Below, in pieces: positions 7,027 through 63,589 of a stretch of 64,000 bases of DNA. The notes beneath the pieces are model-generated. The model had not been told where the DNA came from, searched no databases, and was given only the letters and a program-made list of their open reading frames with translations. The position numbers were made by a program, and so were the translations under genes. Source of the DNA: Octopus sinensis (Eukaryota); assembly GCF_006345805.1 (NCBI RefSeq), contig NC_043006.1, forward strand, positions 11,346,001 to 11,410,000, in the 5' to 3' direction. Numbering within the stretch: the stretch's first letter is position 1; every line of letters starts with the position of its first letter.

Positions 7027-7640
7027 TAGTCAGTTAAAGTAAGACAGTGTCACGCTAAGACTATGCACCTTCACTAGTCAGTTAAGGTGAGACAGTGTCA
7101 TGTGACAACTTGCTGGGGCTGCCTGCTGGAGCCTAGCGACAGGTATTTAAAGGGAAAAGTTTGACAAGTCAGTCAGTCACTTGCTGACGATACATCAAAG
7201 AGGCCAGGGAATAGAAGAAAGAAGACATGCACCCAACACGGTTGTAATTCCTTCCTTCCACCCTCATCGGCCATGACTCGCTGCCGTAAAGGAATATACT
7301 GTAGCAATATACTGAGCTTAAGAAGACTTGTCAAGCCAAGTGAGATCGTCATCATGGCTGATTCCGGTATTTAAGTAACTGGTACCCGTGCCGGTGGCAC
7401 ATGAAAAGCATCCACTGCATTCTTGGAGTGGTCAGCATTAGGAAGGGCATCCAGCTGTAGAAACCATGCTGAATCGGACTGGAATCTGGTGCAGCCCCCC
7501 AGCTTACCAGTTTTCAATCAAACCGTCCAACCCATGCTATCATGGTAAAATGGATATTAAGTGGTGATGATGAAGCCCAGGCCAGTCTCAAGTGATTTGG
7601 TATCAAAAGGGTTAAGAAACACAAAAATGATTAAACTTAC

Positions 7641-7740
7641 ATGCAAGGGCACGGTTGTTGTACACAACATCCAAAGGCTGAATTGAGAGGCTTCGGTTAT
7701 AATAAATCACAGCTTCATTGTAGTCACCACTACGAAATGC
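7641..7740 (-). CDS. SPAG1: SPAG1 coding exon 8 (TPR)
   Basis: ttccag|AFRSGDYNEAVIYYNRSLSIQPLDVVYNNRALA|gtaagt, matching human AFNSGDYEEAVMYYTRSISALPTVVAYNNRAQA; 100 nt, phase 0/1. Confidence 0.93.
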
Positions 7741-9109
7741 CTGGAAAGGTGGAAGAAGATGTTGAAGATCAGATGAATGTATCATATAAAAGAAACACAG
7801 TGTGTAAGGAAGCTTGTAAGTAGCAGCAAACAAGAAAGGATCATGTGAAATACAAAGGAAGATCAACAGCAGCAGAGTGAAGGATGAAAGGGGCCTACAA
7901 AAAGAATAGGAAACAAAAACTACACTACACCTGATTTCCTCCGCTCCATATACACGCAAGCATGTATCTGACTCTTACACTGTTCACTTCCCAGACATTT
8001 TGTACATTACTGCATATGCTTTATGCACACTTTTGACAAGTTGTGGTGCACCTGAGCACTGTATACAATAATTTCATCATTATTATTATTATTTATTATC
8101 ATCCTTATGACTGTTTTAACATTCACTTCTCCTTTCACTGAGACAGATTTACTATGGCCAGACACCTTTCCTCTTTCCAAGTAAGGTATTTTCCCCCAAT
8201 GATCAGGTATATTTTCACAGAAAACTGAAAATGAAAAAATGTCATTGATGCTATTGACTTTATAGTAAGACACCTGTTTCTGCCTCTCTATTACATACAT
8301 ACATATATATATAAGTATATATTTCATCTTTTACTGGTTTCAGCCCTTGGATTGTGTTGGGGCACCGCCTTGAAGGGTTTAGTTGAACGAGTCAACACCA
8401 GTGCTCATTCTTTAAGCCTGGTACTTATTCCACCAGTCTCTTTTGCTAAGCTACTAAGTTATGGGGACGGGTTGTCAATAGTAGTGGTGGACAAACATAT
8501 GCACACACACACACACACACACACATGCATGCACAGTCACCCATACACATACTCTTTTCTTTTTACTCTTTTACTTGATTCAGTCATTTGACTGCGGCCA
8601 TGCTGGAGCACCGCCTTTAGTTGAGCAAATCGACCCCAGGACTTATTCTTTGTAAGCCTAGTACTTATTCTATCAGTCTTTTTTGCCGAACCGCTAAGTT
8701 ATGGGGACGTAAACATACCAGCATCAGTTGTCAAACGATGTTGCGGGGACAAACACAGATACATACACACACACACATATATATATATATAGACATATAT
8801 ATACGACGGGCTTCTTTTTCAATTTCCATTTACCAAATCCACTCACAAGGCTTTGGTCGGCCCGAGGCTATAGTAGAAGACACTTGCCCAAGGTACCACG
8901 CAGTGGGACTGAAACCGCAACCATGTTGTTGGTAAGCAAACTACTTACCACATACATAAATATATATTTGCATGTATGCATACAAGAGGTTCCTTTCAAC
9001 TTCTGTCAACCTAATCCACTCACAAAGCCACAGTAGAAGATATGACCAGAACAATGTGGTTCGGAAACAAACTTCATACCACACAGCCCATTGCACATGT
9101 CTGTGTGTA

Positions 9110-21621: not shown

Positions 21622-22252
21622 TATATACGACAGGCTTCTTTCAGTTTCCGTCAGCCAAATACACTCACAAAGCTTTGGTCGGCCTGAGGCTATAGTAGAA
21701 GACACATGCCCAAGGTGCCACGCAGTGGGACTGAACCTGGAACCATGTGGTTGGTAAGCAAGCTACTTACCACACAGCCATTCATGCGCCTATGTCTGTT
21801 TGTCATTTTTGTCTATTTTCTCATGCTATAGTTACCTTTTGGCAGTCCATGCAAGTAAAATAGTAAACTGGAGATCCAAGGTAGCATTTTAAGGGTCCAT
21901 GAAAAATTTTTTACTTCAGATGTACTTATTAAACGATATAACCCAGTTTCTTTCTCTAATGTTTTGCATAGTGCAAACTCCACAAATTAATATTTGAGAA
22001 GCAAAATGGGGATTTTGAAAGGAGTATCTATGAAACTAGTTTTTTAAATACAGATTAGCCATGGGGATCCACTAGAATAAAATAGTAATCAAAGGGGTCC
22101 ATATATAAAAAATATGGTTGAGAACAGACATTACAGCAAACAAACCAAACTTTATGCACAGGAGGGGGGGGAGGTGGAGGGAGGAGGAGGTGGAAGATGA
22201 GGACAGAAAGGTGAAAACAGATCAGTCACAATAAAATAATAATCTTAAATAC

Positions 22253-22327
22253 CTGTTTGGATGCATTTCTCGGAGTTTTTCTTCACAACATTTTTCAAGC
22301 TCAGCATAATGTCCTTCTTCTCCGGAC
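22253..22327 (-). CDS. SPAG1: SPAG1 coding exon 2
   Basis: tag|G TCC GGA... = (R)SGEEGHYAELEKCCEEKLREMHPN(S), matching human SGEEGYYPELTEFCEKHLQALAPES. 75 nt, phase 2/2, donor AG|gtattt. Confidence 0.92.
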
Positions 22328-22333
22328 CTATAA

Positions 22334-25527: not shown

Positions 25528-26240
25528 TAAGAGTGGTTGTATACTGTCAACATAACGTGACAGTCCCGTATGGAATCACACCACCGTTGTTTAGCCCTAG
25601 GAAGCATCGAACGCTTCCTGTCGGCTTTGACACATTTCCTGTGTCCTTATATTTGTGAAGGGGAGGCAAGCAACCCCACCAGCCAAGATTCACACCTTAG
25701 GACATGCATGTTTCTGGGTCTTAACTCGTCATCAGCCAAGGATAGTGAGATCTGCTGACTGAGGTGCCAGTCTAGCCTTCACAAATATATATGTGCCGGT
25801 GGCACGTAAAATGCACCAATGCGACCGTGGCCGATGCCAGCCTCGCCTGGCACCTGTGCAGGTGGCACGTAAAAAGCACCCACTACACTCACGGAGTGGT
25901 TGGCGTTAGGAAGGGCATCCAGCTGTACAAACACTGCCAGATAAGACTGGAGCCTGGTGCAGCCTTCTGGCTTCCCAGATCCCCAGTCGAACCGTCCAAC
26001 CCATGCTAGCATGGAAAGCGGACGTTAAACAATGATGATGATGATGATGAAATCTATTCACTGGTCACCGTAATTAGAAATATTGGATTTCTAAATGTCT
26101 CAAAGAGACATGAGAGGTGGTGGAGCAATAGAGTGGCTGTATACTGTCAACATAAGGTGACAGTCCCGTAAAGGGAATTACACCATCACTGTTTAGCCCT
26201 AGGAAGCATCGACGCTTCCTATCGGCTTAGCACGAGGGTA
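25528..26240 (-). mobile_element. Non-LTR retrozyme-like element (~340-nt unit, ~1.3 copies) interrupted by a LINE 3' UTR insertion (~25792-26050)
   Basis: Direct repeat 25531-25627 / 26131-26228, many hairpins, hammerhead, no ORF. Confidence 0.6.
25695..25741 (-). ncRNA. Type I hammerhead ribozyme in a retrozyme-like element
   Basis: Minus strand reads CCTTGG-CTGATGA-cgagttaagaccca-GAAAC-ATGCAT-GTC-CTAAGG: stem I, intact core, palindromic stem III and GUC triplet; stem II has two mismatches. Confidence 0.8.
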
Positions 26241-30199: not shown

Positions 30200-31110
30200 G
30201 GAATTCAGGTATATCCACTTAAAATTTCGTTAGCCTTAACTCCAGAGAGCGGTTTTATATTCCCCATCTATCTTTCGTTGAGGAATGTCATATTTGAAAT
30301 AAAATTTTGCTGAGATATGTCAAGTTTATACCAATTCTGTTTTTTTTTTTTTTTGGTATATATTTAAAATAATTACAGGAATAACCATGAAATTTAATTT
30401 TGCAGTTAAAGGGTTGAATATAGTCCAGAAGATAAGAACAAATACTACAAGTCATTTTTATCAATTGCACTTTCCCACTAATCCATCTCTCAGAATTGAT
30501 TATGTTGAAGACATCAACAGAAGAAATTATTATGTGATGCCCTGTACCTAAGTTCAATATCAAAGGTAACCAAGGTCTTTCTAGCTGCAAGAATGACTTT
30601 GATTTCCAGAATAGTAAGATAACTCTGCTAAAAATCAATACTACCATACTTAGTCTTTCCCTGGAACCTAGAATATCTATAATCTCATTTATTAACCCAT
30701 GCATTATAGGTACAAACAATATCGATAATAACAAATATACTAGGAGTATGCCCTCTAATAGTACAATATCCAATCTATGTACAGGAAATTCCTTCATGCC
30801 AAATAGGTCTGGTTGCAGTTGCAAGTCTACAAATGAATGTCCTTTGCAAACTCACTGCAGAAGGTTTAATGTGGTTTACAAATGCATAGTTCATAACACA
30901 CTTCACAATTCTAACTACTATATTGGATCTACAATTAATCTCTAGCATCAGTATTCAGTACATCTAAATTCATTTAAGTATGAAAAGCATAGCAAATCTA
31001 CTTCTCTAGCTGACATTGTGCATTACCTTAAGAAAATGAAGATATCTTACATCCTGGTCTATCATAGATTCTGGCCTCCTATACCAGGATCAATATACTA
31101 CTTGTTGGCT
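30200..31110 (+). mobile_element. Degenerate Penelope-like element, GIY-YIG endonuclease region
   Basis: CSCKSTNECPLQTHCRRFNVVYKCIV...YYIGST...HLNSFKYEKHSKSTSLADIVHYLK fits the PLE CxC..CPL...C/VVY..YIG/H..SF...ST.LS pattern; contains stops and frameshifts. Confidence 0.75.
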
Positions 31111-32427
31111 ATACCTAAAAGAATCATCATCATCATCCTTTAACATCCACCTTCCATGTTGGCATGGGTTGGATGGTTTGACAGGAGCTGACCAGGAAGA
31201 AGACTGCACCAGACTTCTGTGTCTGTTTTAGTTTTGTCCTTTACAGTTGGATGCTATTCCTAACACCAACCACTCTGCAGAGTGGAGTGAGTGCTTTTTA
31301 AATGCTGGTGCCATGTAAAAAGCTTTCAGTCCACTCTGTTGGGTGGTTGGTGTTATGAATGGCATCCAGCTGTAAAAACCTTGCCAAAACTGACCTCATA
31401 CCAGTGGCACGTAAAAAGCACCATTCAAGCACGGTCGATGCCAGTGCCACCTGACAGACCCCATGTCAATGGCACGTAAAAAGCACCATTCGAGCACCAT
31501 TTGGTGGCAGGTAAAAAGTACCCACTACAATCTCTGAGTGGTTGGCATTAGGAAGGGCATCCAGTTCTAGAAACCTTGCCAGATCAAATTGGAACCTGGT
31601 GCAGCCTCTAGGCTTGCCAGTCCTCAATCGAACCATTCAAACCATGCCAGCTTGGAAAGCGGATGTTAAAAGACGATGATGATGATTGATGTCTAAGCAA
31701 TGTGTGCTCAAAATCATGTGGAGACAGATTAGATGCATATAGTGGAGGTGTGTGGCTTAGTGGTTAGGGTGTTGCATTCGTGATCATAAGATTGTGGTTT
31801 CGGTTCCTGGATTGGGTGATGCATTGTGTTCTTGAACAAAACACTTCATTTCGTATTGCTCCAGTCCACACAGCTGGGAAAAATGAGTAACGCTGCAATG
31901 GACTGACATCGTGTCCAGGTGGGGAAATTTATACGCCATGGAAACCAGGAAACTGACCCTTATGAGTTGACACGACTCGAGAAGGTAACCTTTACTTTTT
32001 TTTTTACATACAACCATGTGTACATCCATATCATCATCTGTAAGGCACCATTCGAATGTGATTGTTACCAGCGTCGCCTTACTGGTACTTGTGCCCCGTG
32101 CTAGTAGGGTGCTAAGAGCACCATCCGAGCGTGATCGTTGCAAGAGCATGTGTAAAAAGATTCAAGCGAGGTCGTTGCCAGTACCACCTGACTGGCCTCC
32201 GTGCTGGTGGCACATAAAAGCACCCACTACACTCTCGGAGGGTTGGCGTTAGGAAGGGCATCCAGCTTTAGAAATTCTACCAGATCAGACTGAAGCCTGG
32301 CACAGCCATCTGGCTCGCCAGTCCTCAGTCAAATTGTTCAACCCATGCTAGCATGGAAAACAGACGTTAAATGATGATGATGATGATGATGAAAATTGAC
32401 AATGACGATTATGATGATGATACATAC

Positions 32428-32561
32428 CGTAGAAGTTTGTAGATTTTTTCTAACTCTTTTACATCCTTGCATTTCTTGATATAACCAAAGTCTATATGAT
32501 CCAGAGGGATTTGGTATTTGCTGATGTTCTCCTTAAAATACAGAGGTGTATTCTCACCCAT
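32428..32561 (-). CDS. SPAG1: SPAG1 coding exon 1 (exon 32573-32428, ATG at 32561)
   Basis: Translates MGENTPLYFKENISKYQIPLDHIDFGYIKKCKDVKELEKIYKLLR, resembling the human SPAG1 N-terminus (KIPIEHLDFKYIEKCSDVKHLEKILCVLR). Acceptor tctcttaag| at 32574, donor CG|gtatgt at 32427, phase 2. Confidence 0.92.
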
Positions 32562-61946: not shown

Positions 61947-62471
61947 ATATATATATGTTTCTTTATTACCCACAAGGGGCTAAACATAGAAGGGACAAAC
62001 AAGGACAGAAAAATGGATTAAGTCGATTACAACGACCCCAGTGTGTAACTGGTACTTAATTTATCGACCCCCGAAAGGATGAAAGGCAAAGTCGACCTCG
62101 GCGGAATTTGAACTCAGAACGTAGCGGCAGACGAAATAGGGCTACGCATTTCGCCCGGCGTGCTAACGTTTCTGCCAGCTCGCTGCCTTTTATATATATA
62201 TGAGTGTGTGTGTGTTAACAAATATAAAACCCTGCTGCCAAATACTTATCTTGTAGATGTTTTTCCAGAAATTTAACATCTGCGATTTCATGTTGTTTGA
62301 AACCAAACCTTTGCTTATGATTCCTCTCAATTTTTATCATTTATTGATTGTTTTCTATTTGTAACTTTTTAAAAAAAAGTTGGTAGTTTTTAGTTTTAAA
62401 TATACTTTATCATTTAATTTCATGTTTTTTATAATTTTTTATTATTTTCATTTTTAACCAGTTAAAAGAAA

Positions 62472-63532
62472 ATGGAACAGGATAACACCAAAGAAAATGA
62501 TCTGCCGCTGATGGCGAACATAGACACATATTGTGTCCAGCATTATATTCTGGATTTGATGTGTGACTTTTCTAAAAACATACTTTCTGGATCAACGACA
62601 CTCTTTGTTAATCGTGTTAAATCAGATCCAGTGAAATCTCATTTAGAAAATTACATTTTACCAATAAAAAAGCGGAAACAGGTAACTACAGACCAAATTA
62701 TTACAGAGAAGAAACAGAAGAATTGCAGCAAAGTTTTAAAATGTTCTGAAAGCAATTCAAATAAACTTACAGATTCTTTAAACTCTGATAATGTGTTTTT
62801 TGATGAAGAACATTCTAGTTTTGCTCAGTCTGAGCAATATTTAAAAGACTGCGAGGAAACTGAGTCAAGTTTTGCAACGCATGATATTCCAAGCAATAAT
62901 GAGAAAACGCCATATATTCCAAAATTGGGTACTGTTGGATCTACACAAATTAATTCTTCGTGTTCAGAAGAGGAAATTTTACCAACAGATATTACTTCAA
63001 ATGATAAAAACGTCGAAGAAATAATTCCATCAATTGGCAATCAAAGAAATTTTATGACTGCAAAGGATATAAGTAAAGAATCTACGGAGTCAATGAATTC
63101 TTTTACAATTTGTCATTCAGAACAGAAACAATTTACCAAAGTTTTACCTGGCAATTCAGACATTAACCTTCAGTCAGTGGAAGGTGGCAGTAACCAATAT
63201 AACCATTCCATATTTATACTCGATGCCTGCGATATTATTGTTTCTGAAGTTACTTTATTACCACTTCTTTGGTGCGATAAATGCCAAAATAAATGTTTTA
63301 AAGAATGTGAAACAGGTGCTGATTCCTCTGCCAAAAGAGAAGAATTTTATCGTCAATGTTCTTTAAAAATTGGTAAAGAAATGTCATTTAAAAATGACAA
63401 ATGGTCACTGAGAATTTTTGAGAAGGATCCAACAGAAGAATTCTGCCTAAATTCCAAGTTTGCTATTAAAATTAAATATTCAACACTTGCCAAAGGGAAG
63501 TCATTGAAATGGGTACCAGACCAAGATGGGAA
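62472..63532 (+). CDS. Large first coding exon of an unidentified gene (S/N/E-rich N-terminus, Cys-containing C-terminal part)
   Basis: 353-codon open frame in AT-rich DNA. T-rich acceptor ttttaaccag| at 62461, in-frame TAA just upstream of the ATG, and consensus donor AA|gtaagt at 63533. No family recognised. Confidence 0.75.
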
Positions 63533-63589
63533 GTAAGTTTTAATTCTTTGAGATTTTCTTGAAACATTTATACATACATATATATAACT

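Follow-up and report, generated by a model that had tools for sequence, protein, structure and literature searches.

The 64,000-nt stretch of Octopus sinensis DNA analysed here (the window; contig NC_043006.1, positions 11,346,001 to 11,410,000) contains what is, by its sequence, a decayed copy of a hammerhead repeat, 354 nt long and non-coding, that represents a new member of the non-LTR retrozymes. We consider it highly probable (roughly 85%) that this 354-nt non-LTR retrozyme is copied into new sites by a Penelope-like reverse transcriptase (RT) and endonuclease, probably from circular or multimeric RNA. LINEs that adjoin the hammerheads of this and related families appear to be carried along with the repeats.

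The window copy

The features of the copy and its surroundings are collected in Table 1. In the coordinate frame adopted here, which is set by a naturally occurring segment of locus L141, 354 nt long and bounded by two cleavage sites, the window copy starts at position 74, makes one full turn and stops at 172, comprising 1.28 units; the earlier note, made from the window alone, had correctly given ~1.3 units but put the monomer at ~340 nt, compared to the 352–355 nt measured. The copy is interrupted at monomer 254/263 by a 259-nt repeat. Because in other family copies the equivalents of 26048 and 25792 are joined across 8–9 nt, the two halves being contiguous there, the interrupting segment is a later insertion. 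The inserted repeat has 49 matches within the window and is found 490–560 nt downstream of an RT, on the same strand, in loci L092, L106 and L107; it is likely, as had been suggested, a LINE 3′ end. The hairpin module of ~100 bp that had been said to recur 600 bp away does so at 600–602 nt, the proposed 14-bp enclosing stem is present, and the motifs of the hairpin chain occur where they had been placed, except that TCCC/GGGA is complete only in the 26176/26167 copy. Both preferred 3′-end sites (see below) are internal to the hairpin head, at ~26130 and ~26073. There is one hammerhead at this locus, and a tandem pair is absent there.

Table 1 Features of the retrozyme copy and its surroundings (window positions unless another contig is named), with the 29-kb array described below.
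Feature	Position	Strand	Remarks
SPAG1-like coding exon upstream of the element	32427..32561	-	approximate bounds
Decayed Penelope-like endonuclease fragment	30538..30945 (up to 31100 in a wider delimitation)	+	outside the element
5′-truncated part of the retrozyme copy, hairpin head	26048..26228	-	monomer positions 74-254 from the cleavage site
Later insertion, abundant repeat with (GAT)n tail	25792..26050	+	antisense to the retrozyme; 8 nt of target lost
Remainder of the retrozyme copy	25530..25792	-	monomer 263-354, then 1-172; end is preferred 3′ site 1
14-bp stem closing the hammerhead-bearing rod	25648..25789	-	25789-25776 pairs with 25661-25648
Type I hammerhead with extended stem I	25686..25753	-	predicted to be cut between 25701 and 25700
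Stem I, 5′ arm	25741-25736	-	
Hammerhead core	25735-25729	-	
Stem II	25728-25715	-	
GAAA	25714-25711	-	
Cleavage triplet	25703-25701	-	
Stem I, 3′ arm	25700-25695	-	
Next SPAG1-like coding exon detected	22252..22329	-	approximate bounds
Further SPAG1-like exons	~20,800, ~7,700, ~1,100	-	
29-kb array of retrozyme+LINE units	G000:C3:72,500,871-72,529,901		loci L384, L216, L385, L219, L386, L387

A dispersed family of head-to-tail units

The genome searched comprises 2.72 Gb in 13,516 contigs. The exact core pattern has 273 genomic matches, compared to 0 for the reversed control, and hence the repeat is multicopy, with at least 273 copies. A search with the 157-nt hammerhead region yields 873 candidates, the best of the 40 scored being 90–97% identical (first-look candidates in the genome, 873 and 1949). 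The self-repeat period is 347–355 nt, and the unit closes on itself at 354 nt without an ORF between the hammerheads. Three family loci hold two exact cores 352–355 nt apart, that is, natural dimers; since these are the only exact dimers found in the window family, templates for circles seem to be rare now. Most sites of this family hold 1–1.8 units, and the GC content of the unit is 0.45–0.46. Non-simple flanking repeats of at least 8 nt are present at 16 of 82 insertions, compared to 3 of 82 in the control.

This is a dispersed multicopy repeat with target duplications of more than 4 bp and a non-coding head-to-tail unit within ~150–450 nt, carrying one hammerhead per unit, so that the proposal of a candidate non-LTR retrozyme without an ORF holds for the family. 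Its numerous copies contain no ORF, repeat head to tail at ~354 nt and carry a covarying canonical type I hammerhead, and their unit lies in the size range of the mussel elements, given as 350–390 bp in the portion of PMC7229834 used here. Of the outcomes that the earlier note had named as refuting the proposal, none that sequence can reveal was observed. As described there, the non-LTR retrozymes of metazoa (coral, mussel, axolotl) are likewise non-coding tandem units, 350–390 nt long in a mollusc, with GC below 50%, a canonical type I hammerhead, a highly paired predicted circle and target duplications of more than 4 bp. In contrast, the octopus family mostly has 1–1.8 units per site rather than long arrays, and its circles and cleavage are predictions. 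The main text of PMC7229834 mentions octopus, squid or cephalopod 0 times, and the fixed paired 3′ ends and LINE passengers of the octopus family are not part of that description.

A young sister retrozyme family (L354–L383; 910 pattern hits) has a 362-nt unit, 95–100% identity and a U3-A8 core, and its arrays reach 5.8 units. Contigs of four sequencing runs that we presume to be RNA match the window family, a match that is silent on strand, ends, level and circularity; backward joints of 350–353 nt in these contigs are not used as evidence because tandem DNA copies predict them too. A looser hammerhead pattern (287 hits; control, 30) was dropped for counts, a large part of the 100 hits listed being an unrelated repeat mixed with real hammerheads. 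In loci L305–L311 and L321–L323, an unrelated repeat occurs as inverted pairs 0.6–6 kb apart, likely the terminal repeats of a DNA transposon.

A predicted canonical type I hammerhead

The motifs of a type I hammerhead with an extended stem I lie at 25741–25695 on the minus strand, exactly as the earlier note had them, and the family shares the conserved core, three helices and open stem I of such predicted ribozymes. We parsed 104 distinct hammerheads, picked by core motif and context with pairing ignored. Stem I pairs are formed in 88–100 of the 104, compared to shuffle means of 60–84, and 0 of 1000 shuffles reach these counts; two stem II pairs are formed in 98 (shuffle, 86), and the third, nearly invariant, in 97 (shuffle, 94.6), a count that 15 shuffles reach. 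By this shuffle test, the covariation that had been asked about is present in stems I and II, its significance being overstated because the shuffle ignores relatedness; stem II, the lack of which in the family would have counted against the proposal, is intact in most copies. Positions 3 and 8 swap together (C-G in 87 hammerheads, U-A in 10), and loop III is palindromic in 85 of the 104. A 6-bp helix I and a short helix III with a palindromic loop characterise the canonical metazoan type, as far as it is described in the part of PMC4209133 drawn on, and the family architecture matches it. The comparison with an Rfam hammerhead model that had been advised gives no match: there are 0 hits at the gathering score, and no hammerhead family is matched up to E 10. 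A family with C replacing U4 in the core (L264, L271, L282, L290, L314; at least 10 distinct copies) has intact stems, so that either the ribozyme tolerates the change or the family went on spreading with a dead ribozyme.

For the 161-nt hammerhead region, the fold has z = -3.6, a stability that 0 of 200 shuffles attain. Circular folds of three natural monomers (z = -7.5, -4.4 and -7.0, with the antisense strands about as stable) are predicted to form a rod ending in the hammerhead, with a head of five or six hairpins. The hammerhead conformation is computed at -0.5 kcal/mol for the window copy, compared to -9.1 kcal/mol in the good copy L002, and is the minimum-energy fold in neither (the minimum for L002 is -18.5 kcal/mol). 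The window copy is unlikely to form a circle or to be efficient at cutting SPAG1 pre-mRNA. Both stem II mismatches that had been noted in it are real, but only the uncompensated G>A at 25726 is a lesion of this copy, the C-A at the stem's base being the usual state of the family (58/104).

Insertion ends point to Penelope-type mobilisation

After 17 duplicate loci were dropped, 76 loci provided 82 insertions with 109 outer 3′ ends; these loci were picked as best matches, and all end counts are biased toward well-preserved copies. The outer 3′ ends cluster at positions 166–178 (site 1, 46 ends) and 226–232 (site 2, 38 ends), so that 84 of the 109 fall at two sites 55 nt apart, with 5 more at LINE junctions and 20 elsewhere; the 5′ ends scatter all round the unit. 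Both ends lie at these sites in 18 of the 27 inverted insertions, and in 17 of the 18 there is one of each (p = 7e-5). The 362-nt sister family has one-of-each ends in 11 of 11 inverted insertions. Flanking repeats of 11–15 nt occur in 13/27 inverted insertions vs 3/55 simple ones, and the flanks are often AT-rich or microsatellite. Since 22 of the 55 simple insertions are longer than one monomer, the template appears to be circular or multimeric.

Two 3′ ends a tail apart, an inverted 5′ piece and 5′ truncation are thus combined in this family, as is expected of Penelope-mobilised sequences. According to the sections of Frangieh et al. (PMC11167929) considered here, a Penelope enzyme makes nicks in the two strands of AT-rich DNA, and the Penelope tail is set in vitro by reverse transcription starts at two adjacent internal sites; inverted 5′ copies with a one-ended tail are described for Penelope-like elements in those of Craig et al. 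(PMC8557442). Within the scope of these passages and of a July 2026 preprint (10.64898/2026.07.22.740005), the octopus family resembles Penelope-like elements, and the non-autonomous sequences derived from them, in its 5′ truncation, its partial tandems, its inverted 5′ pieces and its one-ended tail, as well as in AT-rich targets, a hammerhead in the repeat and an AC-rich 3′-end site beside a hairpin, here site 1 (PMC11167929, PMC8557442, 10.64898/2026.07.22.740005). In contrast to these elements, the octopus unit lacks an ORF, has a tail of 55–62 nt rather than the 30–40 nt of Penelope, carries a canonical, not minimal, hammerhead and has no sequence link to a sampled autonomous element.

Under the mechanism we propose, read-through transcripts of dimers or multimers would self-cleave to monomers able to circularise. 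A Penelope protein would bind the hairpin head, and reverse transcription would start internally at sites 1 and 2, one per nicked strand, and run back through the hammerhead, often beyond one full unit.

The search for an autonomous partner

No autonomous Penelope sharing sequence with the unit is found in the 71 Penelope loci, a partial sample, that were retrieved by two protein searches, and we therefore infer the Penelope partner from the end structure. The earlier note had suggested mobilisation by the local Penelope or RTE reverse transcriptases; the ends favour Penelope over RTE machinery, but the Penelope fragment near 30.5 kb of the window, for which a first look at the genome yields 3,666 candidates, has no sequence in common with the unit. 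This fragment and its relatives were rejected as partners, having nothing in common with the unit by BLAST or profile search, and so were, for lack of detectable shared sequence by either method, the young intact Penelopes (L334–L353), which have 947-aa and 842-aa ORFs and 1.5-kb 3′ regions. The ends of the 947-aa family are ~42 nt apart in two inverted insertions. Large-stem-II hammerhead candidates are also seen in these Penelopes. A retrozyme match at L103 lies over 3 kb away from the ORF; it is a copy of its own and was discarded as a Penelope link. At L101, a 395-aa intronless frame on the minus strand, which we take to be alpha-tubulin-like, lies near a duplicated Penelope remnant.

It is improbable that the unit amounts to no more than the terminal repeat (pLTR) of an autonomous Penelope that our searches missed, with the copies being its truncated 3′ ends, as the earlier note had allowed. 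The end structure is indeed that of Penelope elements (PMC8557442, in its relevant part), Xenopus retrozymes match pLTRs according to the portion of the preprint used here (10.64898/2026.07.22.740005), and the sampling covers part of Penelope diversity. However, a screen for ORFs of at least 170 aa within 1.5 kb detects no Penelope ORF beside the unit at any of the 56 loci (out of 60) that could be oriented, and an ORF with RT and GIY-YIG domains between repeats, as in an autonomous Penelope with its pLTRs, is absent among the family loci examined. Furthermore, the unit closes on itself, its 5′ ends lie all round, the sole shared coding flank found is a LINE, the hammerhead candidates in the Penelope loci examined are different ones of the minimal type, and the sister arrays extend over several units.

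LINEs beside the hammerheads

Several retrozyme copies stop at positions 300–311 and are followed by a LINE 5′ end. At L145, the retrozyme gives way to a 1.67-kb ORF1-only element (718–2387) and then resumes with a 21-nt duplication. HAL1 elements are ORF1-only elements, and the octopus element is HAL1-like, CCHC-type and 1.6–1.7 kb long, lying directly 5′ of hammerheads in several retrozyme families. There are 80 places where an exact core follows its tail within 40 nt (control, 0). Exact 20-nt tails number 92; of these, 34 are among the 80 places (a hand count from coordinates), and 40 of the other 58 lead to a variant or mutated core (19), to a target remnant and then other sequence (6) or to no recognisable target (15); at least 59 of the 92 abut the retrozyme unit, 18 lying outside the examined set.

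Two-ORF LINEs (L217–L232; L147), some with an intact ORF2, occupy the same target position with 17–25-nt duplications. One of them, L222 (930–6310), has the L1/Tx1-type architecture, with an ORF1 containing a CCHC knuckle and a 1,132-aa ORF2 containing APE endonuclease, RT and zinc-binding domains; on account of this architecture, we take the LINEs beside hammerheads to be probably Tx1-type. Named relatives, at 25–27%, comprise a pol-like protein of Ciona and an RT from a trebouxiophyte. Among 20 two-ORF relatives fetched, the hammerhead comes next in 14 (two from one array), a tandem LINE in 2 and neither in 1, the other 3 being ambiguous. The distance from the LINE tail motif to the catalytic core is 19–37 nt in 66 junctions (the script accepted 8–45). 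Duplications of at least 9 nt are found in 13 of 17 ORF1-only and 10 of 10 two-ORF copies (uncontrolled counts with one mismatch allowed), and they leave the ribozyme sequence intact.

The target retrozyme families are homologous, with ~50–90% mutual identity, and some are only ~50–60% identical to that of the window. LINE ends that are 92–96% identical sit in targets that are 53–72% identical (shuffle baseline, 47%; hand-picked pairs, rough tree), and because the LINE ends are far more alike than their targets, independent insertions are favoured over a single ancestral event. A LINE 3′-end tree was discarded owing to long branches from truncated copies, unsettled bootstrap and unreliable gap-free identities, and global alignments were used instead. 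The recurrent site, the target duplications and the independent insertions are those of a target-specific LINE, and we infer that these LINEs target hammerhead DNA and hitchhike.

The opposite relation, namely that the repeat is mobilised by these L1/Tx1-type LINEs or is their 3′ part, is very unlikely, even though ORF1-only 3′ ends so often abut the unit and most two-ORF relatives lead into a hammerhead. Only 2/30 and 1/30 of the first-listed copies of two families have the LINE tail, the other 28/30 and 29/30 being LINE-free; the LINEs have a tail of their own and are flanked on either side by target duplications, within the unit; and the retrozyme ends differ from these, being paired as in Penelope elements.

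Known target-specific Tx1 LINEs, in the part of PMC4494074 that treats them, include Tx1L in Tx1D, Keno in U2 and Tx1-Mar in Mariner-N4. They resemble the octopus LINEs in the APE endonuclease, RT and zinc-binding ORF2, the CCHC ORF1, a fixed site in another repeat, target duplications and tandem copies split by the duplicated target (PMC4494074). The octopus target, in contrast, is set by position relative to the ribozyme core across ~50–90%-identical families, not by one conserved sequence, and here the ribozyme is preserved and a third element apparently moves the composite again. A literature search, for which Repbase and subscription journals were out of scope and retrozyme supplements may hold cephalopod cases, found no report of a LINE with a ribozyme target.

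LINE-retrozyme composites

Composites of LINE and retrozyme are found inside insertions that end at sites 1 and 2 (L141, L170, L173/L174). The largest, a 29-kb array (Table 1) that itself ends at sites 1 and 2, consists of four tandem 5.72-kb retrozyme+LINE units and one inverted unit, 99.0–99.6% identical to L222. A single Penelope-type event in which a 5.7-kb circle was copied several times would account for this arrangement; a long tandem transcript, local duplication or misassembly could do so as well.

Tentatively, and at odds somewhat below even, we suggest that a LINE lineage has evolved to land at hammerhead DNA, leaves the ribozyme intact, makes use of it in processing the LINE transcript and travels on 2-kb and 5.7-kb protein-coding retrozyme circles that are copied round several times by a Penelope RT into new sites, which would amount to a still-active three-tier chain of Penelope, retrozyme and LINE.

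Host gene context

The minus-strand exons of the window are, judged by their motifs, presumably SPAG1-like; a TPR exon is located at 7612–7971, the TPR matches being weak. Given the exons at ~32,500 and ~22,300 on the minus strand, the element resides in a 10-kb intron in the sense orientation to the gene, in agreement with the earlier note. At the far end of the window, a 356-aa open frame (62466–63536, plus strand) without a Pfam match is likely an exon of a neighbouring gene.

That the intronic copy is a host-adopted ribozyme regulating SPAG1 splicing is the least credible explanation, given that its sense orientation and a stem I double change that keeps pairing (25738 and 25698; 1/104 hammerheads, the window copy only), probably a chance event, are outweighed by the uncompensated stem II mismatch, the poor hammerhead fold, the interruption and an identity of ~90% to the family reference, like that of its peers. 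Having one damaged hammerhead and an insertion, the window copy would instead be a passenger in the intron; it is probably an ordinary decayed repeat and likely inactive.

Discussion

For the question of how animal retrozymes integrate, the paired-end statistics are insertion-level evidence for Penelope mobilisation. In the portion considered here, the July 2026 preprint argues for a Penelope origin of retrozymes from co-occurrence and sequence trees only, and covers 31 vertebrates together with three insects and one coral, molluscs not being among its species (10.64898/2026.07.22.740005). The same portion reports that 1 of 9 predicted Xenopus retrozyme dimers was cleaved in vitro, which counts against predictions of this kind. 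What lifts the octopus retrozyme is the combination of the insertion-level Penelope evidence with the hammerhead-adjacent LINEs. The paired ends name two likely priming sites and are therefore testable in the existing in vitro Penelope assay, and the 29-kb array may be a trace left by rolling-circle reverse transcription. The LINEs, in turn, add a target class, ribozyme-encoding DNA, in which their distance from the core is similar between families with up to half of the bases different. Should an endonuclease read ribozyme DNA, this would bear on the evolution of LINE specificity and on programmable integration.
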